Shown here piece after piece: positions 1 to 28,849 of a stretch of 32,000 nucleotides of DNA. Position numbers and translations under genes: made by a program. This stretch comes from Candidatus Lokiarchaeum ossiferum. GTDB lineage: Archaea > Asgardarchaeota > Lokiarchaeia > Sigyniarchaeales > Promethearchaeaceae. Below the pieces are notes generated by a model. The model saw nothing but the letters and a program-made list of their open reading frames with translations. It was not told where the DNA came from and searched no databases. Each line of letters opens with the position of its first letter. Within the stretch, counting starts at the first letter, position 1. The stretch is from positions 3,660,001 to 3,692,000 of the forward strand of contig CP104013.1 in assembly GCA_025839675.1 (NCBI GenBank), in the 5' to 3' direction.

Positions 1-1
1 A

Positions 2-4827: not shown

Positions 4828-6090
4828 ATGGAAATATGCCGAAATTTAGAGGATCTAGATCACTATATTCAGAAGAATCAATTATCTGAAATTGATTCAG
4901 TGAAAAATATTGTATCAAAGGTGAAACGAGAAGGAGATGCTGCAGTGAAATATTTCACTTCTCTCTTTGATCAGAAGACTATGGATCAATTTGAAGTTGA
5001 AAAGATAAAGATTGAAGAAGCATATTTAAAAGCCGATAAATCGACTATTTCTGCAATAAAGAAAGCAGCGAAACGAATTGAAATATTTGCAACTAAACAA
5101 ATGGGTTGTTTTCAGGATTTTTCCTATGAAGATGATGTTTCAGAGCTAGGCCAAAAAATAGTTCCTTTGGATTCAGTTGGATGCTATATTCCTGGAGGTC
5201 GGTACCCTTTATTCTCTACTGTTTTAATGACTGTAATTCCCGCAAAAGTTGCAGGTGTTAAAAACATAATTGTTTGTTCTCCAAACATTCACCCTCTAAC
5301 ATTAATTGCTGCAGATATTGCAGGAGCATCACAAATTTTTCAAGTTGGTGGTGCTCAAGCAATAAGTGCGATGGCTTATGGAACAGAAAGTATTCCAAAA
5401 GTATGTAAAATAGTTGGACCTGGTAATCAATATGTTTCTTATGCTAAAAAATTAGTTTATGGAGAAGTAGGAATTGATTTTATCGCAGGACCAAGTGAAG
5501 TATTAGTCATTGCAGATGAAACCGGGAATTCTTCCTACATTGCAGCCGATTTACTTGCTCAAGCCGAGCATGATCCGTTAGCAATACCTATTTTGCTAAC
5601 TACATCAGAGAATATAGCGCAAGCTGTGAATAAAGAAATCAATTATCAACTCAATGAATTAAAAACCAAAGCCGTTGCAGATGTTGCTCTTTTAAATGGA
5701 AAAATTTTTCTCGTAGATTCGATAACAACTGCAGTCACAATATCCAATCGTATCGCTCCAGAACATTTAGAGCTTCAAGTCCACGACATTGATAAGATTG
5801 TGCCACTGTTGACAAATTATGGCTCTTTATTCATTGGAAATAATTCTGCTGAAGTGTTTGGAGATTATTGCTCTGGGACAAATCACGTTCTTCCAACGAA
5901 TGGCGCTGCCAGATATTCTGGAGGTTTGTCAGTAAAGGATTTCCTAAAAATTCTTACTTATCAAAAAATGAAGGAGAACATTTCTACGGATTTTATCGAA
6001 ATTGCTACGAATATGGCTAAACAAGAAGGATTGGATGCGCATCATAATGCTGCATTTTTGCGACAAAAACATAATCAGAATCTTAAATAA
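4828..6090 (+). CDS. hisD: histidinol dehydrogenase
   Basis: 420 aa with IPGGRYPLFSTVLM, VGPGNQYV, AGPSEVLVIAD, QAEHDP and CSGTNHVLPT motifs of HisD. The ATG directly abuts the hisG stop. Confidence 0.92.
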   Translation: MEICRNLEDLDHYIQKNQLSEIDSVKNIVSKVKREGDAAVKYFTSLFDQKTMDQFEVEKIKIEEAYLKADKSTISAIKKAAKRIEIFATKQMGCFQDFSYEDDVSELGQKIVPLDSVGCYIPGGRYPLFSTVLMTVIPAKVAGVKNIIVCSPNIHPLTLIAADIAGASQIFQVGGAQAISAMAYGTESIPKVCKIVGPGNQYVSYAKKLVYGEVGIDFIAGPSEVLVIADETGNSSYIAADLLAQAEHDPLAIPILLTTSENIAQAVNKEINYQLNELKTKAVADVALLNGKIFLVDSITTAVTISNRIAPEHLELQVHDIDKIVPLLTNYGSLFIGNNSAEVFGDYCSGTNHVLPTNGAARYSGGLSVKDFLKILTYQKMKENISTDFIEIATNMAKQEGLDAHHNAAFLRQKHNQNLK

Positions 6091-6098
6091 ATTAGCAA

Positions 6099-6120
6099 TT
6101 TTTTTTAGGTTCCATTTTTT
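6099..6120 (+). terminator. oligo-T tracts after hisD (T8 at 6099-6106, T6 at 6115-6120)
   Basis: Two T-runs lie within 30 nt after the hisD TAA. Oligo-dT is the archaeal intrinsic termination signal. Only 39 nt separate hisD from the next ORF, so read-through is possible. Confidence 0.3.
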
Positions 6121-6129
6121 CCTAAATAT

Positions 6130-6621
6130 ATGAAAATAATACCTTATGAATCTAGTTTGGAATCACAGATTGTAAAACTAATGGCCGATTTCCGTGTTAC
6201 TCTGTCATCCTTCAAAAATGTTAAACGAAATCCAAATCTCATTATTGCCAAAGAGGAATTATGTGAGTATCTTTCTAATAATTTTCCAATTTTTATTGCA
6301 ATTGATAATCAAGGTATACTACATGGGTACATCGTCTGTCGTATTCAAGATCAGGTTGTGTGGGCTGAATCAATTTATGTTAAACATAATTCTCGTAAAC
6401 AAGGTATTGCATCTAAGCTCTATTTAGAAGCAGAAAAAATAGCTGTTTCGTTAAATTCTGATACTGTTTATAATTGGGTGCATCCAAACAATACCAAAAT
6501 CATCCCATTTCTAAAATCCCGAGGATATAATGTCTTAAATTTAATCGAGCTCCGGAAACCACATTTAGGTGAAAATCTATCTATGCATATCTCAATTTTA
6601 GATAATGTATTTGATTACTGA
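6130..6621 (+). CDS. GNAT-family N-acetyltransferase
   Basis: 163 aa. VKHNSRKQGIASKLYLEAEKIA fits the GNAT acetyl-CoA motif A (R/Q-x-x-G-x-A/G). Substrate unknown. Confidence 0.7.
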   Translation: MKIIPYESSLESQIVKLMADFRVTLSSFKNVKRNPNLIIAKEELCEYLSNNFPIFIAIDNQGILHGYIVCRIQDQVVWAESIYVKHNSRKQGIASKLYLEAEKIAVSLNSDTVYNWVHPNNTKIIPFLKSRGYNVLNLIELRKPHLGENLSMHISILDNVFDY

Positions 6622-6734
6622 ACAATCCATTAAATAAATGAACTACTTAGTTTTTCTCAATGTTCAATTGATTTTACTTATTTGCGGAGAATTTTGCTAC
6701 ATGATTCAATATGCGGAGATATTTTCCATACCAA

Positions 6735-6770
6735 TTTATAAAGAATCCGACGAAGAATTATTTATAAAAA
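6735..6770 (+). promoter_or_regulatory. two TATA-like boxes (tttataaa at 6735-6742 and 6761-6768) upstream of the giant ORF
   Basis: The boxes lie in an imperfect inverted arrangement (tttataaagaat / attatttataaa) around ccgacgaaga. Their spacing would place a transcription start either ~15 nt before ATG 6778 or at the second in-frame ATG (6787, leaderless). Confidence 0.3.
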
Positions 6771-6777
6771 AATCCAA

Positions 6778-9700
6778 ATGAGAAAAATGCAAAGTCAAGA
6801 AAAACCTAATAATGAGCAACCTCAGCAATTTGTAAAATGGACTAATATTATTACAGAGCTCGCATTTCTTTTACTATTCCTACTTGCACTTCCAGGTGTC
6901 GCAGGTCTTGTTTGTTCTGGTATCTCCTTTCTTTTTATTTCAGGAAATGAACTTTTTTTTGCGGGAGAAATAAATCTTGGCATGTTTATTTTAGGATTTT
7001 TAGTCAGTTTACCCATCTTCTTCTATTTGTATCTTAAAACTCGAAGAAAAAAGATATACAGTTTCATAACTCCCATGGTTTTCCGGAAAAAACTATCCTT
7101 AAGTTTAATAATACTCTATTTCCCTGCGATATTTGCTTCTACAGTGTTTTCGATTCTTGGGACTACCTTAGGCTATGATCTTTATCTAACTACATTTCAA
7201 ATTGCCATATTTACCATCTTTCCGTTAATTTCAATATTTTTCCAAAAATTCTTTCTCCTTCGTGTTCGAGTTACTGATTCATTGAAGGAAAATCTTACCG
7301 TTCCAATTAATTCAAAATTTATTACCGAATTAAAAAATGGGCAAATATTTCTTCTTTTCTTGAAATCTGCAGTTATAAATATTGCTGTCAATCTATTATT
7401 GCTCATTCTTGGTGGTTTGTATTCAACCGTTCTTTCAATAAATCTAACCTTTAGTATTCTTTCCTTAATTGCTGTTCAAGTTATTGCAGTTAAATTTAAC
7501 GAAGCCAAAGCTTTAGGTTTAGGAATTTTGGTGAAATTGTTATCAACTTTATTAATTCTTGCTAGTTTTATCTCCTTATCTGTCTTAGTTTACTCTGAAA
7601 CTATACCTATTGCCTTATATGTGACATTGGTTTTACTATTGACCATAAAACTTGCGCTACTCAATTTCAAATTCTCTATTCAGAAATTCCTTAATCAGAT
7701 CAGCTATACTAAAAATCTCACTTGGTTAGTGGTTCTTAATACATGTTCGTCTATTATTATCAATCTGGGTATCATTATTACTTCCTACGTTTTAATTGAT
7801 AACCCTTTTATCCAATTAGTCATTCAGATTGGATTGATCATTGAAAATCTATTTGAAAGTAAAATGGGGTTGATTCATCAAAAAATCTCACCTCTATTTT
7901 TAGTTGCGCAATTGCTTCTTGCTAATATTCATCTGTCATTTTTTATTGTAATGGACCTTTCTGAAATATTCTGGGCTGGACTTCTCACTTTTACTGCACT
8001 AGGGATTGGTATTCTTGAACTCCTAAAATATCAGAATTTTCTTTCCCAAAAACAAACTTATATTTTGCGCAATTGTATATATATTGCAATCTTATTAGAA
8101 TTAGCATTATTATTTTCAACATTGGCTGTAGCTAATGATTTAAACATCAACAACGTACCCTTTTTAACGTATCTCTTTTTTATATCTGTGTCAACTCTTA
8201 TTTCTTCTTTTCTTCTTAATAAAATCTATTTTGCAGACAAACCCTCCAATATCTTTACTGGTTTCTTGTATTGTAATCTTGCAATTATCTTATTTTGCTT
8301 TTTTGTCATGATTCAGAATATTATTCTCCCATTTTCAACAGATTTCGTATCTGGAGGTAAGAGATTTTCCAGAATATTCTTATTCTTTTCACCAAGTGGT
8401 GTTTTATCTAACATTGAAGAAGTTCTTTTAAGTATTTTTGATGGTATTGGAAGTTTATCTAATGACCAGAGTATTTTGTTTAAATCTAGTGAAGGGATGG
8501 TTAGTTTATTTAATGTATCTCTTTCCTCTCTTCTTTCTGTCGGATTGAATCTCGTTATTTTCAAATTTTTGAACGGTTGGAAACTAATTTCCAACGAATT
8601 ATATAAAAAACTTCAAATTATTCTTCAAATATTATCTATTGTTGCAATTTCCAATCTTATTGTTCTTATTACATTAGATCTAACGGGATTCGTTTTTTCC
8701 CTGATCGTGACCAATGTCTTAGTTAAATTATCGATATATTACCTTTACAAATCACACACGATCATTAAATATCCTTCTGTTTATCATGATCTTCAAAATA
8801 ATTTCTCTTGTGTGATTTTAGGGCAAGTTATTCTTTGGTTTGGATTCTTATTAGGAGAATCTTTCAACGTTCCTTTTCTCTATATCATGGTTGCATGTAT
8901 TATCTTGTTTCTGCTTGCCCAAAACAATATTCACCTTATAATAAAAAAATATGAATCGATAAAATCTCCCTATCATATTCTAAAAGTAAGCAACGCAATT
9001 TTATTTGGAATGCTCGCTTTGCTTGTTATTTTGATTCCAGTGATTGAGTTAAATTACATATTTGAAGATACGGGTATTTTTGTTCTATTTTTTTCCGGTA
9101 TTATATCTTATGTAAGTTTACGCTTTCTCTATAAAACAGGACAAAACCTACATCAAGGATTAGTAATTCCAAACAAGTTATGGAAAAGAATTCAATATAT
9201 ACTCTTCAACTTCAGACTTCTCTCATTATTCGCATCTCTTATTAGTTTCATTCTTGTCTCTGGTATTTTTGATTTTCTTTATGGGCTTTTTAGAAATGCT
9301 GAGAATGTGATTCCTGAGATTAAATTTGCTATATTCTTCATCTCACTTTCCTTGTTTATATTTTCCCTTAGATTGAAGCCTCTCCTAAATCGATCGAACG
9401 AAATTGAAGATAATCTTCTTAGTAAAATTACCATCTTGCAAGTTATTATGGTGCAGCAAATGAGTGTGCTTGGAATTCTTTTCATTTTTCTTCCAGTTTC
9501 ATCATTCAAACTTACGATAACTGCATTTCTAATAATCTTGCTTCTCTACTCCTTCATGTTTTCAATTAATCAGTACTTGAAACATTTTAATCGTTTTTGC
9601 AAATTTTTAGAGTCCATCAATTTCGTAATCTATAATTTTAATGGACTTTTATTCTCTTTCTTCTTATTTTCCATAATAACAATAGATTTATCCCAAAATT

Positions 9701-12700
9701 GGATCTTAGGATTATTGGTGGGGATTCTTGCTCATTTTGTAATTAATAATGTAATTCAATGGGTTAAAAGCAATTATTCGGAAAAAATCCTCCATATTAT
9801 TAATCTTATTGAACGAAGCTTGGTGTTGATTCTTGCTTTTCCTGCTTTATATCTATTTTTTAGTTCTCTCTCTTTCCCTAATGAATCAAACATAGTTTTA
9901 CTCTCATATCTATTTGAATCAAAATTTGTTGTTATTGCATTTTTGTCCCAATTTTTATTCATTATTACCACAGTCCTAAGTATTTCAAGGGGTCTGCATA
10001 AACTTGGTCGTATTAAATCTACGATGCATGAAAACATTTTGATTGCTTCTATTGAATCGTATTTGCTATCCATTGCCTCCATTTTTGCTTCAGGGATACA
10101 TCTTATTTTTAGAGCTGCCTTTAATCATCGATATGCTGAATATATTAACCTGATTTTGTGCTTTGTGGTTTCTACAGCTATTTTAACTGTCATGATTTTC
10201 TCAAACTTCTATAAAAAACGGATTTACGGCGTCCACAACTCAAAATGGAGAGGTTTTTGGACTCTTCAACATCTAATTTCTTGGACCCTTTTCTGGATCG
10301 CTTTATCTTTTGGCTTTGTTTTCTTATCTGAATATTCACTTACAGTCATTGTTGTATCAATTTCTGTTAATTTACTCGCCTTCAATTTTACTCTTTCCAG
10401 CTTTTCAAAACTCTATCCTGAACTTGCCTTAAAATTCCAATCGTTAATTTACGGAATTCAAATCACCATTTTTATCCTAATCGCAGCTTCGGGTGCTGTT
10501 TTATTCTATGATCTCTTCCAATTCATTTTACCCTTGGTCGTTCTTATTGGTTGCAGTTTATTTTTAGTAGAAATTCACGTTGTTCCTTTGTTTTCCAAAG
10601 GTCTCTTCAAGAATCGCAAGCATCTCATGAATAGCATAATTGGAGTAACTAATGTTGGGTTAGCAGTTGTGACTATTCTCCAATATCTTGCAAGATCTGA
10701 TATATATTTATTCGCTATAAATCCATCTGCTACAATTTCTGGGATATTGGGAATTTTTGCTCTTGGATTGATATTTGCGAATTATCAAGTTTTCTTGGGT
10801 AATCGTATATCTCCTGAAACTAAAACAACGAATAATTTTATCCTCGTTAATGGATTTATTTATGCTTCTTACTCTTTGGTGGTGTCTATATTTATCCAAG
10901 TGACCCAAGTAGAGCATTTTTATTTGTTTAAGATTGCGAACTATCTTTTTATTTTCTTCCTTCCCTTAATTCTTCTTTATGGTGTCCTCAGAGTCATGGT
11001 GTATTTTAAAGCCTATGAGAGTTCTCCTAAATTCTTCAAAATTCTCCAATATCAAGAATTTGCCCTCTGGACTGTATCTTCCAATTTACTCTTAGTTTTA
11101 ATATTGGTGTTCTTAGAATTCAATCCTGTGATAAGGGGATATAATGTGGTTTTAATCTGCTATAGTTTAATATATTCCCTCGATATCTTACGAACAATCA
11201 ATCCGCATATTTCCAAACATACAGAGTTTTGGAAAAATATCTTGAAACAAGCATCTATTGTGATTATGGCGTATTCATCTTACATAAATTTCAACCGAGT
11301 ACTTGAATATAGTCCTGAAATATCCTTAATCCTGACCCTCAGCTCCCAACTTTTCTTTATATTTTTATTAAAACCATATCGGAAGTTACTCGCAAAAATA
11401 TTAATTCAACTCACTGCAATGGTTACTTTCATAATTTCGGTATGTGCTGCATTCGAGCTTTATGGTTTAGCGATTCATTTTGGACAATTTAAAGCATCTT
11501 ATACGTGTTTGCTCTTGTTGATACCACTTGTCGGATCTTTTATCACTATTTTAATTCTCTCCAAATTAACTTCCATTAAAAGGATTGCATCTCAGATCCA
11601 TGCTTTGCTTTACAGTCTGGTGATTGTCGATTTAGCGGGTCTAGTATATTTTGCTGCAGTAACTTACTTTTTCCCAATAGATTCCATTTTCTTCGCTTCA
11701 TTAGTCATCCCGGTGTTGTTAATTGTTGATCGCTATACCTTCCGGTTATTAATGACTGATAAATTATTTATTCTTTGCTTAACCATCACTTATTCTATTG
11801 TTTCGAGTTTATTTTCAATAATTCTTGTTAAAAATGTAGTGGATCGTTTGAAATATCAAATTCCTATTGCATTCATCTTAGAAATATTATTCGTTACTGG
11901 TTTATTGATCTATATTGTTTGGCATTATGATAAGAATGAAGAATACGAATTTGTTACCGAATCTGATACACAACCAAATAATGACGATGAAAATGGAGAT
12001 GAATTTGAAATTCCATTCATTCAGGCACGTTCTGAAAATCCTAGTCAGAAGTTGTCTCACTCTATTTTTACTCATCTTTTCCAAATTAAAGTCGCTTTAA
12101 TGATTGTGCTATTCATCAATACTTCTTTGATCGTCATATTCAATTCTCTTGACTCTGAAATTGCCCATACTCCTTTCAATGTCGCTTCCCTCGGAATTTT
12201 AGCTCTCTATGCTCTATCCATGATTCCCAAGCAACAAGTTCAGCTTTTGAAATTTTATATCATTGCCGGATTAACTGTATTCTTAAGTATCCAATCTTAT
12301 TGGTTTGGAACAGGAATACTCTCTTCAATTCTTATTATTAGTAATCTTATCGCAATTAACTGGGTTGTGTCTTCCCGAAAATCTACTTCATTCAATGGAA
12401 AACTGTTACTAAATCTTTTAGTACTTGGGTTGTACTTCTTCAACTTCAAGTCTTTTAACATTGATTTCTTTACATTGAATGGCAATAACATGCTAGAACT
12501 CTCTATTCTCGCCTCTATTATCTGCTATGAGTTGGGAACTACCAAACATTACAAGAATTTAATGTTTAAATCTTTGAAAAATGGAGCCATAGCTTATTTC
12601 ATTTCAATTCTTACCCAATATTTTCTGGAACCTTCCTTTAAAAATGAAGTACTTGTTCCCATACTCGTTCCCATTGCGATTTTTCTAACCATTTTTGCAA

Positions 12701-15700
12701 CATTGGAATGGTTTCTGGTTGAAATTTCATATCCTGGATACAAATCAATTCCCAAATCTATTTGTGGATATGTTTCCCTCATCGGGATATTCTTTGTATA
12801 TAGTCAATTTTACAAAACTTTTTCTACCGTTTTTGGATATATCACCGCTCCCGTTCTACTATTCGTCATCATTGGGGCGATCCTCTTAAAAAATGTCGAT
12901 CGATTACGACATCGGAAAAATTTATTAAATCAGGTTGTTTTAGTTGCCACCTTTGGATTTTTCTTGTTCAGTGGATTAAATTATATTTTCACCAGTTTTG
13001 AAAATCCTCTTATTTTAAGTATCCTATTGAGCACTGCTATTGGGGGATATTTATATACTTTTATGTATAATTGGCTTGAAATAAAGACATCTAAAAACTT
13101 GATCATTACAACCCTGACTTCTGGAGCAGTTTCCGCAGGGGCATTCTTTTATTTCTTTTTAACTGATCTAAAAATATATTTTAAGCCCACTCACTCCTTC
13201 GCGGTTGCAATCGATTTTTGTGTATTAATGTTTTTCATCGCCCTTGGAATTTATTATAAGTCTTTTCAGAAAGTCTGGTCTATTGGAGCTTATGTGTGGA
13301 TAATTGTGCCCATTGCAAACTTCATCATAATATCATATAGTCTTCAAGATATTGACTACATCATTGAGGCGATTCATATTGGTTCAAACTCGGTCAATGG
13401 ATCAATAATTCTTGCCGTAGTTGTTTGTTCGTTGTTGTACTTGCCTGTGTTATTAACGAAGTTGAAAAAACATTTCAACAAAATTATCTATATTTTCTGG
13501 TTGGAAATGTTTATGTGTGCCTATTGGGCCGCTACAAATATATTTCCAAGTGAAACTCTTCTGCAATGGGTTTTTGCAGGTGCAATTGGCCTAATTCTTA
13601 TTCTCCCGATTTTGTATATCTACAAAAAATGGAATTGGATGTCCTTGGCATGGCCTTCGTTATGTGCGACGAATATTGTTTTTATTTCGAACTATTTATC
13701 CTACCTTCCTCCTCACTATTTGATTCCTATTGATGTTCTGATTGGAGGGATTTTCTTACTTTCCTTAGGATATTTCCCAAATATCAAGAAAATTAAATCC
13801 AACTGGCAAAATATCATAATTATTTCCGGATATATGACTATCCTTGGCGGTTTATTTGCATTGATTAATCCTGCCATGATTTTCTTACTTGAAGATAAGA
13901 TCATTTCGGCTGCTGTGACCACACTGATAATGTCTTTTGTCCTTCTTTCTGGTAAACAATTCCGAATTCGAGATGATATTGTAAAACATTTCCATGCTTA
14001 TATCTTGATATTAGACATTGCCGTAATCATCTGGCGTACTTTTTATCTTGTTGGAGTGTCTTTATTATCTCCTGAAGCGATTGTGATAACCCATTTTAGC
14101 GTATTTGGACTTTTATTGGGTTTATCTTTTGCTTTTGGAACCGCTCTTTCCTTCCAAGCCAGAAATTATCTAAAGAAAAGTTATCACTTTGTGCTCTGGT
14201 TTTTCATGGCTTTATTCTTTGGTTTATCGGTATTTCAATTATTGTTAGCTATTTTTGAAGTAGGTCCTTGGGCTTCAACAGGTGTTTTGATTCTGGCCAC
14301 ATCGCTAATATGTTTCAATTTCTTCAAAAAGAAAATTGCTTTATTCAATATGGTGATGCTTTCTGGTACCAGCTTAGTATTAATGAATTGGTTAAGTCAA
14401 ATTGATATTTTCCAAAACTATATTGGCTTGATTTTCATAGATTTGGTGGTATTGCTTGAATTCATTTATCTGTATTTAACACAAGATTCTAAATATCAAC
14501 TAGTTAATCAAACAACACTGAATAAACAATTAGTTGCCAGTGTATGGTTAATCCTTAGTATTGCTTTATCTATCACTACCAGTCTGATATTAACAAGTAT
14601 CCAAGCTGGGGGAGTTCCATCGAAAATACTTCTCGGAATCATTGTTTTCAACTTTCTGAATATTCCAACTTATAATTACATTCAAAAGAATAATCTCTTT
14701 GCCATGTTTACTCGGATGAATGAGATTTTAAAAGGGATCAAAATTTTCCTCTTTCAGAGCATTGTTTTATCGGGCACTCTCTTAATTTCTCTCAATATTC
14801 CCTTTTTGATTCAACCGAATACAAGTCATGCACTTTTCCAAACCTTCCTTCATCATACTGGGCTATTCCTCCTGCTTCAATTCATCTATTACGAGTTTGT
14901 TGAAAAATATTGGGTTCATTTAATTCCTGAAAAAATCCGGCTGCAAGTGAGTTCGGGGATCTTCTTGATATTCTCCTTAAGTTTTTATGGTAACTTGTTA
15001 TATATTCCCGATTCTTGGCAACTATCAACAATTATTCTAGGAATTTTATCCTTTTACACCATTGAACTAAATGTTAAAGCTAAGAATATTCAAAATTCAA
15101 AAGTTTTCCGGGTTGTTGTTCTTTCTGCTATGAATATATGTCTCTTTTTCATGCTGTGGGATCCTTTAATGATCGGATATTGGCTATCCAGAGGCAGATT
15201 TGAGTCACTTTCGCTCAGTTTATTTATTATTGCACTCATTTATTTTGTGGGAATGAAAATACACTTCATTTCTTCTAAGTTCGTTATTCCTGCATATGTC
15301 GTTACCAACTCACTCTTTGGGATATTTGTCGAAGAAATCCTTCGAAATGTTAGTAAAGCCTCGATATTTACAATATTGGGTACATTTTTCATTATTCTCT
15401 GCCTTTCAAATTTCTTCTTAATTAAAAATCCGAAATCAGTGCATCTATATTGGTTAGTTGCCAGTTTTGCCATTACTTGTCTAATTCATGGAGGAATACA
15501 AAATTATCTAATGTCTGATTTTGGAAAGAGTCTATTTTTCTTCTGCACTCTAGGGACTATTTTGACTGTTATTTATTATATTTTAGCTTCACAATCCCAT
15601 ACTCCCGCTTCTTTATCAAATCTTGATATTGGGGATCAACAGGTTTCAAAATCAGAAAAAAGCCTTACTGCTTCGAATTTATTAAGGATTCCAATGAAAA

Positions 15701-18700
15701 ACCGTTCGCAATTGTGGTTTATCAACACCTATCTTATTAGTTCTTTTTTAATCTCAATCGGGATAAATCAAGGCTGGTATTCTTTACTCACGAAACAATT
15801 AATTGAGCTCAGTCCATTATCAAGTTTCAGTTCCTTCATTTTATACAGCTGTAGCGCGATGATTGGATTTCTTCTTGGTTTAATCCTAATAGCTCAATAT
15901 ATTGAAAATGAAGATCAAAAATCTCAGAAACACCTTCAAGCTCTATCAACTAAAAGTAATCAAATTGCTATCCGTTATGGTGTTACCTTCGTTACGGCTT
16001 TAACAATCTTTATTGATTTATGGTTCATTTTAGACATTTGGACCTCCATTCTCGATAGAAATTTCGATTTACTTACATTAAATTTGGTAATTGCCTTAGT
16101 ACTTGTTTATCTTTGTATGCGGTTGAAATTTATTCCTAAGAAAGGAACGGCTCTAGTTACCTTAATTATTTCAATCCTTATTTCCTTGTATATTGAAGAA
16201 CTTGTCCGTATTAATCTTTCGATAGGTCCAATCTTTAATAGTTCTATTTTTAAATTCCTGTTCAATAGCTCCGTTTTCATTGTCCTTTTTATCCTGTTTA
16301 ATTGGCAAAAAACATATAATTCCATTTTGGCTTATACGTTCTGGAGTTTGATGTCATATTCACTCACTACGTTCATCAATACTTTGATTCGCTTAGTTTT
16401 ACCTTCAAGTTTTTCACCCTTCAATGAAATAGTGGTGTTTTCATTCATTTTTAGTATCCTTACAACGATAATATTTGGTCGCTTAGCGATTCCGAGAAAT
16501 GATAAATTGGATGTGTCTTCCCCTTCAAATTCTCTCCCAGATGGAGATCTAAACACATCCACTGAAAATGATAGACAGAAAATCCCAACTCGTACCTACT
16601 TAAAATATGGACATCCAGATCAACGGATTTCACAACACATTTTCGTTTATTGGGTGGTATTAATTGCGAATCTCGTCATCAGTTTTACCTTAGCTTATGC
16701 ATGGAATCAATTAACTCTAACGAAAATGTTTTATTATGAAGCGTTAAGCGGGTTTATGAATTTTATTATCAGTTTTACCTTAGCTTTTGCAATTTTTGCA
16801 GGTATTTTCCGCTTAGTTATAAAATATACTCGCAAAAACTCAATATCTTTCTCCAACCGTTTTGAAACAATAAACAATCCTGTTCTAGATGTAATTCTGG
16901 GGTATTTGGGCACTCTGTGCTTTAATATTACACTTTTCATTCATCTTTGGTACCAATTTGATACTGCTCTATCTTTAGAACAATTGAATTTCATGAGTTT
17001 ATTGCTTAATGTCACTATAAACACAATGATTGTCTCTTTGTTGATGAAATTCGCAGTAATCAAACCTTTCAAGCCAGACTTTTTTAGTTTTATTAATTCC
17101 ATTGTGTTTTCTCTATTGATTGAAGAATTAATTCGTATGGTATTTGCGGATACTCTGTTTAATATTTCCGTCTTCCTCTTTTTATTCACGGTAATCAATT
17201 GGCGAAAAACTTACAATTCAGTTCTTGCTTATATTTTCTGGTCGGTGCTCTCATTCTCATTCTCTTCATTCCTCTATACATTTATCCGTCTTGCATTACC
17301 TGAAAGCTTCTCACCCTTCAATGAAGTGGTTGTTTATTCATTCATTATTTGTATCTTCACTTCAGTTATATATGGACGTATGGCAAACCATCCGGTTGAT
17401 AATCCCGATGTTCCGTATATGATAGGCCCCACTATGGAAGAAAAAACACCTCAGTTCTCCGAAAATAACAATCAGAAAGTCCCTAGTATTATATTCTTAA
17501 AATATGGTCATCCTGATCAACAGATTTCAAAACGACGTTTTGTTTATTGGACTCTATTCGCAAATTTCATAGTTAGCAGTATTTTAGCTTATGCCTGGAA
17601 TCGATTAATACTCACCAATTTATCATTTTACGAAGATTTACCCTTGTTTATGGAAGTACTAACATGTTTAACTCTTGCTTTTGCGATCTATGCAGGGATA
17701 ACTCGGTTAATTCTGAAATATAATCGAAAAGAATCGGTTATTTTTGCAAATATTTTTGAAAACATGAACAAACCATTAGTAGACATTGTTTACGGATATG
17801 TAGGAACTTTTGCAATGAACGTTACTTTATTTATCCACTTATGGTACTTGTTTAACACTGCTTTTTCACTCGAAAACTCCAATTATACAAGTTTATTATT
17901 CAATCTTTCAATTAACACACTAATTGTATCTCTTTTGATGAAAAATGCCATAATCAAACCATTCAAGCCAGCAGCATTTAGTTTCATTAACTCAATTGTA
18001 TTTTCACTATTCATTGAAGAACTAATTCGCACGAATTTAGAAACCGAACTTCTTCTCAATATTTCAATCTTCGTGATTTTGTTCACGGTAATTAATTGGA
18101 GAAAAACTTACAATACTATACTTGCCTATGGATTTTGGACTGCAATCTCCTTTTCTCTCTCCACTTTTCTGTATGAACTGCTTAATTTAACATTTCCCGC
18201 ATCCTATACAAGATTTAATAAAGTGCTTGTGTTTGCATTCATTTTCTGTTTAATCACCACTTTCTTATTTGGAAGCCTCGCAAATCGCTTTGTTGATCGA
18301 TTGAATTTCAAGGTCCTTTCAGTTTCTGATTCTGAAGATGAAAACAAGCTTGCTTTAACAACTACTTCCAATCCTAACAAGGAAATTCTTTTATTGAAAT
18401 ACGGTCATTCAAATCAATTGATAGCGCAGCGTATTTTTGTATATTGGTTACTGTTGGCGAGTGTGATTAATACATTTATTTTGACCTATGGTTGGAATCA
18501 AGGAATTCTATCTCAACTTTCCCTTTTTAGTGATGTGGGTGGATTTATGAATTTTGTAATGAATTTCTCTCTAGCATCTGCTATTCTAATGGGATTTTTA
18601 CGCTTGATTATCCAATATAACCAGAAGATGGAAATAACTCTTAATCGAAACTGGAATAAATTGAATTCACCTATTACGGATGAATTATTGGGATATTTAG

Positions 18701-21504
18701 GGACTTTTGCGTTCAATATTTCCCTATTCTTGCATATTTGGTATCTGTTAGAGATCAATTCTTATCTCATTCTATTAGATTTCACTGGTCTTGTTTTCAA
18801 TCTTGCAGTGAATTTCCTCATTATCACATTATTAATGGAGTTCAATGTTATCAAACCGTATAAGCAAGTACTTGCAAGTATATTTACAACACTCTTATTC
18901 TCGCTTCTCCTCGAAGAAGTGGTAAGAATAAGTAATCCTGATATTAACTGGGCTCTATTGGTTGCAATTACCACACTTAGCTTTACCATACTCAACACAC
19001 TTAAAATTAAAACTTCTAAGATGGTTTATAGTTATTGGGCAAGTCTGATATTGTGCATTACTGTGTTCATTATGAATTCGGTGATTCTCAATAATCCTGA
19101 AATGATGCCTTTGACTGTGCTTTATTTCTCAGTAATCATCTTTTCATCCTTCGCCTTGATTGTGTCTCTTTCGCTCGCTCACCGCTTCTGGATCAAAATC
19201 GCACCTTGGATTGGTGAAAAATATAATTCCGTCAATAATAAATCCAGTAACCAAAAAGAATTTCCCTTTAAATTAGAAACCTCAATAGAAGCTCCAAAAG
19301 AAATTCTCTCCAATTCTTCTCCAGAAAATGAATGGGTAGAAAGTCATCCCAATTTTCCCCTTCTCTTATTGGGTAATCGATCTCACTTACCTGTCAAAAA
19401 AATTTTCTCCATTTTGGTTTTTGCAGAAATTCTGTTAACCATTCCATACCTTTCTCACCTCCTTAATGGAGCCTATATCCATAGCATCAAAAATATTGCA
19501 TTAGAAAGTATATATTCTGACTTTTCGTTCCTGTCTCTCTTTGCAGTGTTTATTACTTTCAGTTTTACCTATCTTTTTGGAAAGCTCGGAAAATATATTC
19601 AAAAATATCAATTATGGGCTGAAAATCCTAAACTCTATAGTAATATTCAACGATTTTTTACGCTTAGTGGGATCATTTATTATATTATTCTTCCGTTAAT
19701 GTTAATGGGCTATTTGAATCAATTATTTGGATTAATCCCAAACTTGACGCTTTTCATTCGTACCGCATTAGATATTCTAATAGTTGTGTTAGGACTTTAT
19801 ATCGGAATTTATCTCCTTGATATCAAGAAAAATCACTTCATCCCTCAAAAAATTGCTTTCAAATGTACTATTATTCTGTCTATACTCATGGCGTTAGATA
19901 TAAGTACTTTGTACATAAGTATTTTGTGGGGCAAAATTCCACCATACTTTGTTATTGCCTCTGCTCTCATTATATTTTCACTCTCTCTAAATATATTGCA
20001 TATAATCAAGGAATTTTCAGAGGATTTGAAGGGAAAGATCAGAGTGGGTGTCATCGGCAGCCTTTATATTGAGATACTTCTTCTCTTAGGAGGTCTATTC
20101 GCGAATTTTGAAGATGTTGCTAAAATATTCAGAAGCGTTCTGATAATAGTTCTTGTTATCTACCTCGCCATCGAGCTGGAACATCATGTAAAATGGATCA
20201 AACCAATTACTTCATTTATCACAACTATTCGACCTTACAGTTACATCATAGCTACTGGTTCAATTGCCATTTTAATTGGATTTTGGGGATTTACCGTGTT
20301 TAATCTCTCTTTAGTTATCTTTTCACTCATGTTATTCACTGCATCATTAATATTGTGGAGCTATCTTGAGTTTAGAAAGGATAATCCTGAAAAATTCCTA
20401 AAAAACCGAAAAGTTCTTGGAATTGCTCTATATGCAGAAATTTTACTTCTTATCAATGCTCTCACTTTAAACTTGTATATAGATAAAGTTATTCGCTTTG
20501 ATATTGTTAAATCAGATTTACTTGCTGTATTTTGTGCCATTACTCAATTTTTCATTGTAAGTTATCTTATTTTACTTGTTGATCACCGGGTTCTCAAATT
20601 AATCAAAGAATCGGTTTTGAAAATATTAGAATTAGGTTGTTTCTTTGTTTCAATCATTTTGGGTGCCTTTGATATTCTTTTTTATATTATATCAAAAACT
20701 AGCTCTCGACCCAGCACACCCTCTTCTGGTTTTGCAATCCCAAATACTTCCATTTTAATTCCAATCTTAATTGTGAGCGCCATTATTGGATTTGTATTGC
20801 ATTTACGATTCAAAAATAAGATCGTCAATCAAGTCTCCTATTTTGTTGGATTTTTCGAATTAGCACTAATAATTTTCAAGTTTGGGGAACAAAATAATAA
20901 TAGCAATAATATTTTGCTTGCAATTTGTATTTTTGTTGCTCTTCTCTTATATCCATTTATTTTCTTTATGGATAAAATGCGAGTTCTCATAAAAAAACTT
21001 ATAATGGATCTCAAAAACCTAGTGATTCGCATTAAAAACTGGTTCATCCAAGCTTGGCACACTTTGGTCCATTTATATCACAAGTATCGAACGATTGTGT
21101 TTGTAGTCATTGCAAGTATCATCGGTGCTATTCCGCCCATCATTCTTGCTGAATCTAACCTCATTATTGGATTATTTATTGGTGGCTTAATCTTCCTAAT
21201 TGTTGTTTATCCAGTATCACCCGAAAAATTAGATGATATTTCAGCAAAAACGTTTACGAAAAAGATAATTTACCGTTCCATGATATTACTCTCAGCTTTC
21301 GGAATAATAATTAGCTTATTTGAAGATCCAGAATCATGGATATTTTCATTGTTAGTTTGGGCTCTATTTGGGTATATTCTTGTAATTGTAAAGCGTCGCG
21401 AAGAACTATATAAATTGCCTATTTATTGGCGCTTTTTCAGCGCATTAGCTACAATATTGCTATCAATTCTGACTGTAGTTTTAGTAATTATTTCCTTTAT
21501 TTAA
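6778..21504 (+). CDS. giant polytopic integral membrane protein (4,908 aa), function unknown
   Basis: An uninterrupted 14,727-nt ORF in AT-rich DNA. The product is almost continuous TM-length hydrophobic segments with K/R-rich short loops and internal amino-acid repeats. A T9 tract lies 16 nt after the TAA. Confidence 0.8.
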   Translation: MRKMQSQEKPNNEQPQQFVKWTNIITELAFLLLFLLALPGVAGLVCSGISFLFISGNELFFAGEINLGMFILGFLVSLPIFFYLYLKTRRKKIYSFITPMVFRKKLSLSLIILYFPAIFASTVFSILGTTLGYDLYLTTFQIAIFTIFPLISIFFQKFFLLRVRVTDSLKENLTVPINSKFITELKNGQIFLLFLKSAVINIAVNLLLLILGGLYSTVLSINLTFSILSLIAVQVIAVKFNEAKALGLGILVKLLSTLLILASFISLSVLVYSETIPIALYVTLVLLLTIKLALLNFKFSIQKFLNQISYTKNLTWLVVLNTCSSIIINLGIIITSYVLIDNPFIQLVIQIGLIIENLFESKMGLIHQKISPLFLVAQLLLANIHLSFFIVMDLSEIFWAGLLTFTALGIGILELLKYQNFLSQKQTYILRNCIYIAILLELALLFSTLAVANDLNINNVPFLTYLFFISVSTLISSFLLNKIYFADKPSNIFTGFLYCNLAIILFCFFVMIQNIILPFSTDFVSGGKRFSRIFLFFSPSGVLSNIEEVLLSIFDGIGSLSNDQSILFKSSEGMVSLFNVSLSSLLSVGLNLVIFKFLNGWKLISNELYKKLQIILQILSIVAISNLIVLITLDLTGFVFSLIVTNVLVKLSIYYLYKSHTIIKYPSVYHDLQNNFSCVILGQVILWFGFLLGESFNVPFLYIMVACIILFLLAQNNIHLIIKKYESIKSPYHILKVSNAILFGMLALLVILIPVIELNYIFEDTGIFVLFFSGIISYVSLRFLYKTGQNLHQGLVIPNKLWKRIQYILFNFRLLSLFASLISFILVSGIFDFLYGLFRNAENVIPEIKFAIFFISLSLFIFSLRLKPLLNRSNEIEDNLLSKITILQVIMVQQMSVLGILFIFLPVSSFKLTITAFLIILLLYSFMFSINQYLKHFNRFCKFLESINFVIYNFNGLLFSFFLFSIITIDLSQNWILGLLVGILAHFVINNVIQWVKSNYSEKILHIINLIERSLVLILAFPALYLFFSSLSFPNESNIVLLSYLFESKFVVIAFLSQFLFIITTVLSISRGLHKLGRIKSTMHENILIASIESYLLSIASIFASGIHLIFRAAFNHRYAEYINLILCFVVSTAILTVMIFSNFYKKRIYGVHNSKWRGFWTLQHLISWTLFWIALSFGFVFLSEYSLTVIVVSISVNLLAFNFTLSSFSKLYPELALKFQSLIYGIQITIFILIAASGAVLFYDLFQFILPLVVLIGCSLFLVEIHVVPLFSKGLFKNRKHLMNSIIGVTNVGLAVVTILQYLARSDIYLFAINPSATISGILGIFALGLIFANYQVFLGNRISPETKTTNNFILVNGFIYASYSLVVSIFIQVTQVEHFYLFKIANYLFIFFLPLILLYGVLRVMVYFKAYESSPKFFKILQYQEFALWTVSSNLLLVLILVFLEFNPVIRGYNVVLICYSLIYSLDILRTINPHISKHTEFWKNILKQASIVIMAYSSYINFNRVLEYSPEISLILTLSSQLFFIFLLKPYRKLLAKILIQLTAMVTFIISVCAAFELYGLAIHFGQFKASYTCLLLLIPLVGSFITILILSKLTSIKRIASQIHALLYSLVIVDLAGLVYFAAVTYFFPIDSIFFASLVIPVLLIVDRYTFRLLMTDKLFILCLTITYSIVSSLFSIILVKNVVDRLKYQIPIAFILEILFVTGLLIYIVWHYDKNEEYEFVTESDTQPNNDDENGDEFEIPFIQARSENPSQKLSHSIFTHLFQIKVALMIVLFINTSLIVIFNSLDSEIAHTPFNVASLGILALYALSMIPKQQVQLLKFYIIAGLTVFLSIQSYWFGTGILSSILIISNLIAINWVVSSRKSTSFNGKLLLNLLVLGLYFFNFKSFNIDFFTLNGNNMLELSILASIICYELGTTKHYKNLMFKSLKNGAIAYFISILTQYFLEPSFKNEVLVPILVPIAIFLTIFATLEWFLVEISYPGYKSIPKSICGYVSLIGIFFVYSQFYKTFSTVFGYITAPVLLFVIIGAILLKNVDRLRHRKNLLNQVVLVATFGFFLFSGLNYIFTSFENPLILSILLSTAIGGYLYTFMYNWLEIKTSKNLIITTLTSGAVSAGAFFYFFLTDLKIYFKPTHSFAVAIDFCVLMFFIALGIYYKSFQKVWSIGAYVWIIVPIANFIIISYSLQDIDYIIEAIHIGSNSVNGSIILAVVVCSLLYLPVLLTKLKKHFNKIIYIFWLEMFMCAYWAATNIFPSETLLQWVFAGAIGLILILPILYIYKKWNWMSLAWPSLCATNIVFISNYLSYLPPHYLIPIDVLIGGIFLLSLGYFPNIKKIKSNWQNIIIISGYMTILGGLFALINPAMIFLLEDKIISAAVTTLIMSFVLLSGKQFRIRDDIVKHFHAYILILDIAVIIWRTFYLVGVSLLSPEAIVITHFSVFGLLLGLSFAFGTALSFQARNYLKKSYHFVLWFFMALFFGLSVFQLLLAIFEVGPWASTGVLILATSLICFNFFKKKIALFNMVMLSGTSLVLMNWLSQIDIFQNYIGLIFIDLVVLLEFIYLYLTQDSKYQLVNQTTLNKQLVASVWLILSIALSITTSLILTSIQAGGVPSKILLGIIVFNFLNIPTYNYIQKNNLFAMFTRMNEILKGIKIFLFQSIVLSGTLLISLNIPFLIQPNTSHALFQTFLHHTGLFLLLQFIYYEFVEKYWVHLIPEKIRLQVSSGIFLIFSLSFYGNLLYIPDSWQLSTIILGILSFYTIELNVKAKNIQNSKVFRVVVLSAMNICLFFMLWDPLMIGYWLSRGRFESLSLSLFIIALIYFVGMKIHFISSKFVIPAYVVTNSLFGIFVEEILRNVSKASIFTILGTFFIILCLSNFFLIKNPKSVHLYWLVASFAITCLIHGGIQNYLMSDFGKSLFFFCTLGTILTVIYYILASQSHTPASLSNLDIGDQQVSKSEKSLTASNLLRIPMKNRSQLWFINTYLISSFLISIGINQGWYSLLTKQLIELSPLSSFSSFILYSCSAMIGFLLGLILIAQYIENEDQKSQKHLQALSTKSNQIAIRYGVTFVTALTIFIDLWFILDIWTSILDRNFDLLTLNLVIALVLVYLCMRLKFIPKKGTALVTLIISILISLYIEELVRINLSIGPIFNSSIFKFLFNSSVFIVLFILFNWQKTYNSILAYTFWSLMSYSLTTFINTLIRLVLPSSFSPFNEIVVFSFIFSILTTIIFGRLAIPRNDKLDVSSPSNSLPDGDLNTSTENDRQKIPTRTYLKYGHPDQRISQHIFVYWVVLIANLVISFTLAYAWNQLTLTKMFYYEALSGFMNFIISFTLAFAIFAGIFRLVIKYTRKNSISFSNRFETINNPVLDVILGYLGTLCFNITLFIHLWYQFDTALSLEQLNFMSLLLNVTINTMIVSLLMKFAVIKPFKPDFFSFINSIVFSLLIEELIRMVFADTLFNISVFLFLFTVINWRKTYNSVLAYIFWSVLSFSFSSFLYTFIRLALPESFSPFNEVVVYSFIICIFTSVIYGRMANHPVDNPDVPYMIGPTMEEKTPQFSENNNQKVPSIIFLKYGHPDQQISKRRFVYWTLFANFIVSSILAYAWNRLILTNLSFYEDLPLFMEVLTCLTLAFAIYAGITRLILKYNRKESVIFANIFENMNKPLVDIVYGYVGTFAMNVTLFIHLWYLFNTAFSLENSNYTSLLFNLSINTLIVSLLMKNAIIKPFKPAAFSFINSIVFSLFIEELIRTNLETELLLNISIFVILFTVINWRKTYNTILAYGFWTAISFSLSTFLYELLNLTFPASYTRFNKVLVFAFIFCLITTFLFGSLANRFVDRLNFKVLSVSDSEDENKLALTTTSNPNKEILLLKYGHSNQLIAQRIFVYWLLLASVINTFILTYGWNQGILSQLSLFSDVGGFMNFVMNFSLASAILMGFLRLIIQYNQKMEITLNRNWNKLNSPITDELLGYLGTFAFNISLFLHIWYLLEINSYLILLDFTGLVFNLAVNFLIITLLMEFNVIKPYKQVLASIFTTLLFSLLLEEVVRISNPDINWALLVAITTLSFTILNTLKIKTSKMVYSYWASLILCITVFIMNSVILNNPEMMPLTVLYFSVIIFSSFALIVSLSLAHRFWIKIAPWIGEKYNSVNNKSSNQKEFPFKLETSIEAPKEILSNSSPENEWVESHPNFPLLLLGNRSHLPVKKIFSILVFAEILLTIPYLSHLLNGAYIHSIKNIALESIYSDFSFLSLFAVFITFSFTYLFGKLGKYIQKYQLWAENPKLYSNIQRFFTLSGIIYYIILPLMLMGYLNQLFGLIPNLTLFIRTALDILIVVLGLYIGIYLLDIKKNHFIPQKIAFKCTIILSILMALDISTLYISILWGKIPPYFVIASALIIFSLSLNILHIIKEFSEDLKGKIRVGVIGSLYIEILLLLGGLFANFEDVAKIFRSVLIIVLVIYLAIELEHHVKWIKPITSFITTIRPYSYIIATGSIAILIGFWGFTVFNLSLVIFSLMLFTASLILWSYLEFRKDNPEKFLKNRKVLGIALYAEILLLINALTLNLYIDKVIRFDIVKSDLLAVFCAITQFFIVSYLILLVDHRVLKLIKESVLKILELGCFFVSIILGAFDILFYIISKTSSRPSTPSSGFAIPNTSILIPILIVSAIIGFVLHLRFKNKIVNQVSYFVGFFELALIIFKFGEQNNNSNNILLAICIFVALLLYPFIFFMDKMRVLIKKLIMDLKNLVIRIKNWFIQAWHTLVHLYHKYRTIVFVVIASIIGAIPPIILAESNLIIGLFIGGLIFLIVVYPVSPEKLDDISAKTFTKKIIYRSMILLSAFGIIISLFEDPESWIFSLLVWALFGYILVIVKRREELYKLPIYWRFFSALATILLSILTVVLVIISFI
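15270..19700 (+). repeat. intragenic tandem array of ~299-codon (about 8-TM) repeat units inside the giant ORF
   Basis: NW(Q/R)KTYN codons start at 16300, 17197 and 18094. LKYGH codons start at 16600, 17497 and 18394. Both sets are exactly 897 nt apart. Degenerate flanking copies occur at ~15427 (IKNPKSVHLYW) and ~18994 (NTLKIKTSKMVYSYW). Confidence 0.85.
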
Positions 21505-22035: not shown

Positions 22036-22701
22036 CTATTCTTCTAGTTTCTTATGGCACAACCACCAATCATAGCATTCATGATCTTTTGATTTCAGGC
22101 GCTCTTTTGCCGTTTTAACATCCTTTGCAGGAGGTACGATTACATGATCTCCAACCAACTCACTATTTGGCCAATTGGCGGGGATAGCTACTTTATTTTT
22201 GTCTGCTATTTGAAGAATTTTAACAATTCGAACAATCTCATCCATATTTCTTCCAATCTCTTGAGTATAATAGAGGATTAATCGTATAAATCCTTCAGTA
22301 TCGACAACAAATACTGCTCTGACTGTATTGGATCCTTTGCCAGGATGGATCATTCCTAAGGTTTTACCAATCAATCCATGGTCCGCGATAATCGGAAATT
22401 GGATTTCCTGATGTAGATTTTCTTCAATTCACTCGGTCCATTTGATATGACTAAAAACTTGATCAATCGAAAGTCCCAAGAGTTCACAGTTGTAACTTTT
22501 AAATTCTTCGTAATGCTTTGCGAAACTATAAAATTCGGTGGTGCACACAGGTGTAAAATCGGCAGGATGAGAAAATAACACAAAATATTTTCCTTTATAA
22601 TCTCCCGGAAGATTTTTCATCCCGTGCGTGGTTTGTACTTTCATATCGGGGAATTTGTCCCCAATTAATGGAAAACTTTGATTTTCAGACATTTTTTTCA
22701 C
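22036..22701 (-). pseudogene. peroxiredoxin (archaeal Prx6-like AhpC/TSA family) interrupted by one in-frame TGA (22429-22431)
   Basis: ORFs 22429..22701 and 22036..22374 are in the same frame (327 nt apart). Translation across the gap reads ...[36 protein letters not shown].... The peroxidatic FTPVCTTE and the C-terminal CYDWWLC are both present. Confidence 0.8.
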
Positions 22702-23333
22702 TTTTTAGTTTTTCAATTTAATTTTCAATGATAATTTCAAAACTACCATTGAGTATTCAAATATCTATTCACAATGAATGTTAATTCAATCCTTAAGACT
22801 TAAAATTAGATTTTAAAAAATTCTTTAATTTTATTATCACACTTTCGTTTGCATCCTAAATCAAAGTTTTACATGAAGTTCCCGGTGAGAATTCCTCTAT
22901 TTGGAGATTTAATCATGGAATTTAGGTTCTTTATTACGCAATTTAGTTTTCTAGGTAGTAGATTAAATATAATACTTCAATCCTTGTTTTTTGAAAGGCT
23001 TGGGTTTTTACTTTCGGTTGACTCCTAGGTTTCGCAAACAATGGGCAAAAGTGATCTAACATATAAACATCGATTGAGACGAACTTTTTTCACTCAGTAG
23101 AGATCTCACTACATAATAAAGAATTGTCAATAGATATGAAGAAATCTCTATTCTGTGGGCTTGTTGTTGATTTATATATTAAATTCGGGTTAAATCATTT
23201 TATGAGAAGTAAAAGGTAGGTTTGAAAAATCAGAAGTATAGTTGGTTGTGAATTTGATTCCAGATTGATTGGGTTGTTTTTTTCATTATACTCTGTCATC
23301 TCCTGATAATTTTCTTGTTGGTTTTAATAAATT

Positions 23334-23402
23334 TTAGTAGTATTGGGTTTGGGTTGAGACTAAGCTCCAGATATTTTCCGTTTTTTGAGTGTGAGTTTTC
23401 AT
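23334..23402 (-). CDS. candidate 22-codon mini-ORF in repeat unit 1 (MKTHTQKTENIWSLVSTQTQYY); coding status unproven
   Basis: ATG...TAA on the minus strand, with GGAG 10 nt upstream of the ATG. Confidence 0.2.
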   Translation of the reverse strand: MKTHTQKTENIWSLVSTQTQYY

Positions 23403-23440
23403 TTTTTAGGTTCTCCAGGGGGTTAGTGTGTGAAAAAAGT

Positions 23441-23509
23441 TTAGTAGTATTGGGTTCGGGTTGAGACTAAGCTCCAGACATTTTCTGTTTTTTGAGTATG
23501 AGTTTTCAT
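23441..23509 (-). CDS. candidate 22-codon mini-ORF in repeat unit 2 (MKTHTQKTENVWSLVSTRTQYY); coding status unproven
   Basis: Same frame and structure as unit 1, with GGAG 10 nt upstream of the ATG. Confidence 0.2.
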   Translation of the reverse strand: MKTHTQKTENVWSLVSTRTQYY

Positions 23510-23546
23510 TTTTTAGGTTCTCCAGGGGTTTGTGTGTGAAAAAAGT

Positions 23547-28445: not shown

Positions 28446-28559
28446 GTTTTTCCCTTAGTATATTTTTTATGTTAGGTGTATATTTTAAACCTACTTTCAT
28501 TATGATGACTTTCCTATAAAAACCAAAAAGTGTTTTGAAATCCACTAAGTGAAAAAAAG

Positions 28560-28834: not shown

Positions 28835-28849
28835 ATCTCAATTTCCTCT

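Follow-up and report, generated by a model that had tools for sequence, protein, structure and literature searches.

The stretch of DNA analyzed here (hereafter the window) comprises 32,000 nucleotides (nt) of the Candidatus Lokiarchaeum ossiferum contig CP104013.1 (positions 3,660,001 to 3,692,000, forward strand) and raises a simple question: is a single open reading frame (ORF) of 4,908 codons, translating into little but hydrophobic helices, a real gene, and if so, what kind of protein does it encode? On the comparative evidence given below, this giant ORF is a genuine gene whose frame is held open by purifying selection, and its predicted product belongs to a membrane protein family specific to Asgard archaea that, as far as Pfam, NCBIfam, PDB sequence and Foldseek-PDB comparisons reach, is without detectable relatives among known families. 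With regard to function, we favor a central working part with in-plane arms on either side that can be extended, which would be Piezo-like in design by analogy and without homology, at a probability of roughly 0.35.

The giant ORF (6778..21504, + strand) begins with ATG and ends with TAA, and its 4,908-amino-acid (aa) product has a predicted mass of 561 kDa and a pI of 9.3. At its GC content of 32.3%, base composition predicts about one stop per ~16 codons, or ~309 in total, where none is seen (probability of an open frame by chance ~3e-139), and the remaining five frames over the same stretch hold 218–501 stops each. Candidatus Lokiarchaeum ossiferum B36 carries a syntenic ortholog of 4,905 aa (94% aa identity) on its closed 6.27-Mb chromosome (CP163304), with the his operon upstream and genes for a peroxiredoxin, a Fer4 protein, a TPR protein, HxlR, a methyltransferase, and NAD synthase downstream in both strains. 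CP163304 is assigned to strain B36 in a 2026 preprint, and the window therefore represents a different but closely related Lokiarchaeum, possibly strain B35. A codon alignment of the two genes showed 398 synonymous and 306 non-synonymous differences, giving a synonymous rate (dS) of 0.13, a non-synonymous rate (dN) of 0.027, and a dN/dS of 0.21, with no 500-codon block exceeding 0.34. Internal indels are limited to two single codons, and the annotated start differs by 3 codons. Given this ratio and the conservation of the family, the frame is under selection, as had been proposed in an earlier, sequence-only reading of the window from its lack of stop codons.

The same reading had allowed that the frame might prove broken or chimeric; it is instead intact in the window, in the closed genomes of B36 and Promethearchaeum syntrophicum MK-D1 (DSAG12_00898, 3,940 aa), and in an independent Logan assembly of the public MK-D1 reads. 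An artifact, be it an assembly chimera, a fused gene run, or an untranslated frame opened by T-rich strand bias, would have to coexist with these colinear orthologs from two cultured strains, with the substitution pattern above, with a core conserved at 22–40% identity over dozens of metagenome-assembled genomes (MAGs), and with in-register repeats and a positive-inside pattern. Nothing positive speaks for it, although the product is so far a predicted translation and the one expression dataset (see below) is weakly discriminating. We therefore consider an artifact refuted for practical purposes, with only a sliver of probability left to it.

The translation is almost purely transmembrane. Leucine (16%), isoleucine (13%), and phenylalanine (10%) together account for 39% of residues and charged residues for 11.7%, with a grand average of hydropathy (GRAVY) of 0.86. 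Kyte-Doolittle 19-residue windows above 1.6 gave 115 non-overlapping segments and a dynamic-programming hydropathy caller, checked against AlphaFold helices, gave 142, between them making the 120–150 spans first estimated by eye a fair figure. Residue-shuffled versions of the sequence still yielded ~128 segments with the same caller, because the composition is so hydrophobic; the segment count is thus by itself no evidence of topology, which comes rather from the distribution of lysine and arginine (K+R) and from the structural models. Odd-numbered loops contain 205 K+R residues vs. 87 in even-numbered loops, with 0 of 20,000 label permutations as extreme, and the odd:even counts run 24:0, 0:18, 2:31, and 3:26 in blocks of 12 loops, with slips of register confined to the vicinity of aa ~400 and the stretch from ~1650 to ~2050. 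Such alternation requires correctly phased, truly alternating spans and bears out the positive-inside-like pattern claimed from the sequence. The caller and AlphaFold also agree on helix number (19 vs. ~18–19 in the core and 8 vs. 8 in the repeat module described below), further supporting a topology of many spans. We estimate ~130–145 membrane crossings, uncertain by a few, with very short loops between them. A summed Hessa-scale caller was dropped, having returned 6–122 segments depending on the threshold.

Seven loops are longer than 40 aa (aa 1715-1771, 2938-2978, 3239-3287, 3534-3587, 3836-3885, 4135-4208, and the amphipathic, K/R-rich 4732-4772). The seven hydrophilic islands previously picked out by eye are all real polar stretches where they had been placed; six are among these loops, and the seventh (aa 4638-4658) is a shorter Ser/Pro/Thr-rich stretch, separate from the loop at aa 4732-4772. 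The K/R-rich side, presumably the cytoplasmic one, holds nearly all longer hydrophilic segments, among them the loop at aa 4732-4772 and all five module linkers. The N-terminus is likewise predicted to be cytoplasmic from the K/R distribution.

No known family accounts for this protein. The full-length sequence matched 0 families in Pfam-A and 0 in NCBIfam at E values up to 10, and Pfam was equally empty for the homologs from MK-D1 and from P0018, a distant member. Among PDB sequences, the single-sequence query gave a sole, non-significant match to MrpG (E=0.04, 13.6 bits), and profiles of the core and the repeat module (A3, A6) gave nothing below E 0.69. Foldseek searches of the PDB returned a best E of 0.4 for the core model (template modeling (TM) score <=0.2), mostly to designed or natural helical-repeat proteins, with matches to ABCC, MATE, and NuoL at E>1 and TM <=0.16, and a best E of 1.9 for the module model. 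Profiles of the ABC, MFS, RND, MATE, and complex I/Mrp antiporter-like families likewise found no counterpart in the protein (0 matches in Pfam and NCBIfam), and by these searches the protein is not a concatenation of known transporter families, in agreement with the earlier remark that no known family signature was recognizable. Literature searches turned up no account of it. Public records list members of the family solely as 'hypothetical protein', and neither a domain model nor a structure or paper was found, which is an annotation gap for a protein family reaching 0.56 MDa.

Within Asgard archaea, on the other hand, homologs are readily found, as the first reading had hoped. A protein database search returned 11 close homologs, namely the B36 ortholog and ten colinear homologs of 2,791–4,141 aa. 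An exhaustive scan of 1.84 billion cluster representatives with profile A1 (~790 aa, the best conserved part) returned 36 matches, all at E<=1e-10, with no weak tail into other families; a search from P0018 added 68 further clusters (2,000–3,750 aa), an A1 search of a word-indexed protein database yielded at least three further proteins among the 8,000 candidates listed, and an A1 genome scan returned close relatives only. Colinear homologs of 2,500–4,400 aa are present in MK-D1 and dozens of Asgard MAGs, with source names, where given and as deposited, of Lokiarchaeota/Promethearchaeota, Ca. Sigynarchaeum, Thorarchaeota, Hodarchaeota, Helarchaeota, and Ca. Harpocratesius. The sole non-Asgard name belongs to a contig labeled Nanopelagicaceae bacterium, which is probably mis-binned. 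Membership was defined by the ~790-aa A1 match, the invariant residues W2167, W2174, P2178, N2181, E2243, W2250, and N2254, a length >2,500 aa, and a GRAVY of ~0.9-1.2. Full-length members measure 2,500–4,908 aa and are hydrophobic throughout, and the giant protein reaches 1,012 bits with A1, being itself among the sequences from which the profile was built. One copy per genome was found in the cases that could be judged, and the gene appears to be single-copy in the sampled genomes. The MK-D1 and P0018 loci share an M42 peptidase gene upstream and an amidohydrolase gene downstream, which suggests an orthologous relationship between the two 'subfamilies', each in its own lineage.

Single-sequence phmmer matches to distant members are confined to aa ~1,880-2,800 of the giant protein, and a profile of aa 2000-2790 matches these members end to end. 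By sequence comparison, this core of ~800 aa is the only part recognizable family-wide; the flanks diverge past recognition yet stay all-membrane (GRAVY 0.86-1.17). Its invariant residues are W2167, W2174, P2178, N2181, G2208, S2209, P2223, W2241, E2243, W2250, N2254, P2277, W2285, W2292, and P2334, and conserved polar positions fall inside its helices (D/N2146, N2181, E2243, N2299, N2379, and N/D2413). The loop at aa 2190-2207 is conserved, acidic, and free of K/R, and contains a nearly invariant D2193. An AlphaFold model of aa 2040-2620 (581 aa, from an input alignment of 15 rows) is all-helical, with a predicted local distance difference test (pLDDT) score of 72.8 and a predicted TM score (pTM) of 0.64.

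This loop invites a reading in which the core is a membrane-embedded enzyme with several spans, whether transferase, polymerase, or flippase, that handles lipid-linked substrates on the outer side of the membrane with the flanking arrays as accessories, similar in function to GT-C glycosyltransferases or Wzy-type polymerases. GT-C enzymes typically have acidic outer-loop residues beside the membrane, and in the core a broken helix with many invariant Trp, Pro, and Asn residues leads into the acidic, K/R-free loop with its nearly invariant D2193 (a 'GID' motif). A single loop Asp is, however, not specific to GT-C enzymes. STT3 and related Pfam/NCBIfam models did not match the giant protein, the WWDYG motif is absent from the conserved core columns, and even at E values up to 10, no GT-C, STT3, Wzy, or flippase match appeared in Pfam, NCBIfam, or PDB sequences. 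With no fold match by Foldseek and no glycosylation or lipid-biosynthesis genes among the conserved neighbors, we regard such an enzyme as improbable.

The core sits between repeat arrays, and the protein can be divided as follows (all on the + strand):

6778..21504, +, whole ORF, 4,908 codons plus TAA, predicted integral membrane protein
6761..6789, +, putative promoter and start region, from the sequence, with the promoter function presumed
6778..8613, +, N-terminal region, aa 1-612, ~17 predicted helices (caller, K/R distribution)
8614..11919, +, array A, aa 613-1714, four diverged ~272-aa tandem units, ~29 helices (profile-profile self-comparison)
11920..12090, +, hydrophilic island of acidic character, aa 1715-1771, separating array A from the middle region
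12415..15177, +, conserved core, aa ~1880-2800 (phmmer, profile match)
13159..14289, +, best-conserved stretch within the core, aa 2128-2504 (alignment, AlphaFold)
14935..19446, +, array B, aa 2720-4223, five tandem ~299-aa 8-helix modules (iterative hidden Markov models (HMMs), model)
19447..21117, +, region C, aa 4224-4780, ~15 helices (hhalign, caller)
21118..21501, +, C-terminal domain, aa 4781-4908, conserved at 47% identity among close subfamily members

The internal repeats were found by BLASTP of protein chunks, Tandem Repeats Finder having returned none from the DNA because the copies are too diverged at that level. HMM slices were run with HMMER --max, as the default composition-bias filter missed even self-matches. 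Iterative HMMs resolved array B into five tandem copies of a ~294-aa module (starting at nt 14935, 15763, 16690, 17584, and 18481), upholding the earlier description of a 299-aa repeat with 8 transmembrane segments, the number found by both AlphaFold and the caller. Identity to copy 3 is 18–53% in the A6 alignment and 42–63% between BLAST-matched stretches. Across modules, mean column identity is 31%, the only invariant residues being a Glu and an Arg ('EExxR') where helix 4 ends. Every copy closes with a polar linker of 40–75 aa on the K/R-rich side, usually with a 'GHxxQ' motif next. Array B was modeled as a single module from a single-module alignment, the tandem-pair alignments of 1,015 and 987 columns being mis-registered; the AlphaFold model has 8 long helices (pLDDT 83, pTM 0.74) and a disordered linker.

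Homologs have one to three array B copies, mostly two or three (~one in P0014), which explains their lengths of ~3,930 aa against 4,908 aa here, and copy number spans 1 to 6 over the family. The count of six derives from region C, where hhalign aligned its first part (C1) in register with the B module (68.7%, E 4.5e-5); aa 4224-4500 are probably a sixth, diverged B-type module, judging from this alignment. In addition, aa 2614-2756 show a resemblance to two other segments, aa 4249-4402 and aa 4527-4636. Array A is a second, older array, in which profile-profile comparison linked unit 2 to unit 3 (98%, E 4e-14), unit 1 to unit 3 (95%), and unit 3 to unit 4 (87%). The same method detected no relation among array A, array B, and the core. 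The ends are well conserved in the close subfamily, with 46% identity over the first 100 aa and good conservation over the last ~110 aa; the motifs YPVSPE, KIxYR, and GY...R.SEE.Y.L..YWR occur in the C-terminal domain.

Repeats of this kind could in principle act independently of one another, with every 8-helix module and ~272-aa unit being a small transporter or pore in its own right, fused in tandem. The module model is indeed a self-contained 8-helix bundle, and its Glu/Arg pair is invariant in each copy. That pair, however, lies at a helix end near the interface and not mid-membrane, the modules are otherwise poorly conserved and vary in number from 1 to 6 among homologs, no transporter family matches, and the strongest constraint falls on the non-repeated core, all of which makes a pore chain quite improbable in our view.

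A functional core with arms is instead proposed from the contrast between the constrained, polar core and the poorly constrained, copy-variable arrays, the former being taken as the functional part and the latter as structural extensions. The core would be the working part, its invariant buried Glu, several buried Asn/Asp, broken Trp/Pro/Asn helix, and acidic outer loop resembling what might be expected of a conduction, transport, or lipid-facing catalytic site. The flanking tandem arrays would then be expandable in-plane 'arms' of helical bundles that set the membrane footprint of the protein and either make the core responsive to membrane tension, curvature, or thickness or shape the membrane locally. 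Such a protein would suit Asgard cells with long actin-filled protrusions. More broadly, and with somewhat greater doubt, the giant protein may be the first member to be recognized of an Asgard-specific class of single-chain 'mega-polytopic' machines of ~140 helices with a new fold and architecture, in which a conducting or catalytic core with expandable 8-helix arrays would sense or shape membrane geometry in protrusion-forming cells of the kind regarded as ancestral to eukaryotes.

Several points weigh against this proposal. The core model is only moderately confident, and the most conserved loop is the worst part of it (pLDDT <50 at model residues 150-191). Eight genomic contexts of the family revealed no conserved partner gene or pathway hint. 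The 'arms' are an analogy, the models covering the core and a single module. Expression adds little: in Supplementary Table 3 of Imachi et al. 2020, the MK-D1 copy has 152 reads per kilobase per million (RPKM), and as the portion of the table available spans only ~109–375, a narrow dynamic range, this value is weak evidence. It shows that the MK-D1 copy is transcribed, as far as that portion of the table goes, and says little beyond that.

The same architecture can also be read as a passive scaffold or 'membrane skeleton', the whole chain forming a helical plate or belt that would make the membrane stiffer, thicker, or more ordered without transport or catalysis, with the conserved core as an assembly or oligomerization interface and a role such as diffusion barrier or protrusion stabilizer. 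Consistent with this are the near absence of extramembrane mass (seven loops >40 aa), the freely varying repeat copy number, the weak top Foldseek matches of the core to helical-repeat/solenoid proteins and not to transporters, and the location of the MK-D1 copy directly downstream of a gene of the SPFH/flotillin family, known for membrane organization. However, the buried invariant Glu and Asn of the core would be costly in purely structural packing, the flotillin neighbor is not kept in any other context examined, and the Foldseek matches are insignificant, so that we hold a scaffold to be possible, although unlikely. The earlier suggestions of a scaffold, a mechanosensor, or a conduit are speculative and are neither supported nor excluded by these results, and some reading other than those considered here takes the remaining probability.

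Returning to the proposed core with arms, the closest parallel in design is Piezo, which is cited as holding the record for transmembrane passes among membrane proteins (38 per chain). In Piezo, repeated 4-helix units form blades or arms coupling membrane geometry to a central module. Piezo1 and Piezo2, which in eukaryotes form trimeric, curved, mechanically gated cation channels, share with the giant protein a very large polytopic chain, tandem helix bundles, and little soluble mass, along with the proposed plan of a functional module plus repeated in-plane arms. They differ in several respects: there is no Pfam or Foldseek match to link the two (E>=0.4 for the core, >=1.9 for the module); the giant's units have 8 helices (~272-299 aa) vs. 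4 in Piezo; its conserved part is central and not C-terminal, with no extracellular cap domain; its ~140 helices are roughly 3.5 times those of a Piezo chain; and its family is restricted to Asgard archaea. The Piezo fold, as defined by 4-helix blade units and a C-terminal capped pore module, was thus not recognized in the giant protein.

The antiporter-like subunits of complex I and Mrp (NuoL/M/N, MrpA/D) likewise have a long membrane domain with repeated helical modules and charged residues in or near the membrane, but there the array consists of several separate homologous subunits, whereas the giant is one chain, and it lacks a Proton_antipo_M match and redox or energy-coupling neighbors. 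Compared with huge prokaryotic proteins, the giant is at the length extreme for an archaeon and owes part of its length to tandem repeats; those proteins are typically surface or soluble repeat proteins, while the giant is almost only membrane helices. In a survey of proteins >5,000 aa, a cutoff slightly above the 4,908 aa found here, most had no transmembrane helix and many had at least one (PMC11573180).

If the count of ~140 spans is true, it would be several times that of any characterized protein chain and would make this by far the single polypeptide with the most membrane spans known, raising the question of how Sec/YidC-type machinery inserts and folds such a chain. Asgard archaea are the closest known relatives of eukaryotes, and their envelope, central to models of eukaryogenesis, is unusual, with no classical wall and with long actin-supported protrusions. 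Being confined to Asgard archaea, present in multiple lineages, and apparently single-copy, the giant protein is a candidate for a lineage-defining component of this envelope. Its carriers include two cultured L. ossiferum strains and P. syntrophicum MK-D1, for which proteomes and cryo-tomograms already exist.

At the 5′ end of the gene, a TATA-like sequence (TTTATAAAAAAA, 6761-6772) precedes two in-frame ATG codons at 6778 and 6787. The latter encodes a conserved methionine (M4), kept in at least 11 of 12 family members, and is the annotated start in B36. The ~110 nt upstream of the gene are nearly identical between the window and B36. They include an imperfect direct repeat with GCGGAGA (TTTGCGGAGAATTTT ... 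ATATGCGGAGATATTTT; window 6680-6725, ~60-100 nt upstream of the ORF), which is kept in B36 and may be a regulatory site.

Further upstream, the his operon (window 1-6650 vs. B36 locus L001 3171-9763) diverges far more between the strains than the DNA to its right, nucleotide identity being 68% for hisD, 95% for the giant gene, 95% for the Fer4 gene, and 98% for the TPR gene. The divergence of this operon against the near-identical promoter and downstream genes suggests a recombination or replacement boundary just 5′ of the giant gene. In the window, hisD is separated from the giant gene by a 163-aa GNAT acetyltransferase gene (6130-6621, + strand), which B36 lacks at that position, having a 237-nt gap instead.

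Downstream, 500 nt from the giant ORF, the peroxiredoxin gene (window 22036-22701, - strand) has an in-frame TGG>TGA change at the conserved Trp of a 'WTEW' motif, splitting it into ORFs of 90 aa and 112 aa, while the B36 ortholog (L001 25248-25904) is intact at 218 aa. This is either a real pseudogene in the window strain or a base error; the change indicates that stops do arise at this locus where tolerated. Beyond it, window 22702-23947 (~1.25 kb) contains no ORF of >=60 aa and shows an unusually positive GC skew (+0.27 at 23001-24000). The region is gene-free in B36 too, where it is mostly 86-99% identical with a ~110-nt indel near 23490-23580. Rfam and tRNA scans gave no match in the window, including this region, which may hold an unannotated non-coding element.

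In MK-D1, the giant gene is directly preceded on the same strand by SPFH/Band-7 (flotillin-like) and transglutaminase-like genes (L002 8496-9731). The flotillin neighbor was set aside as a functional lead, being absent from the other seven contexts, as was the non-recurrent amidohydrolase gene that follows the giant gene in MK-D1 and P0018. In the shorter subfamily, two members (L004 805-7805 and L005 1466-7706) share an upstream order of Fer4, MFS transporter, aminotransferase, small ORF, and glycoside hydrolase family 4 genes; one MAG is labeled Lokiarchaeota and the other Hodarchaeota. As the order is common despite the differing labels, the taxonomic labels of these two MAGs may be unreliable. 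Lastly, a nucleotidyltransferase/HepT toxin-antitoxin pair separates the methyltransferase gene from the NAD synthase gene in B36 (L001 31947-32740), where the window has only a gap of ~400 nt (28446-28849).

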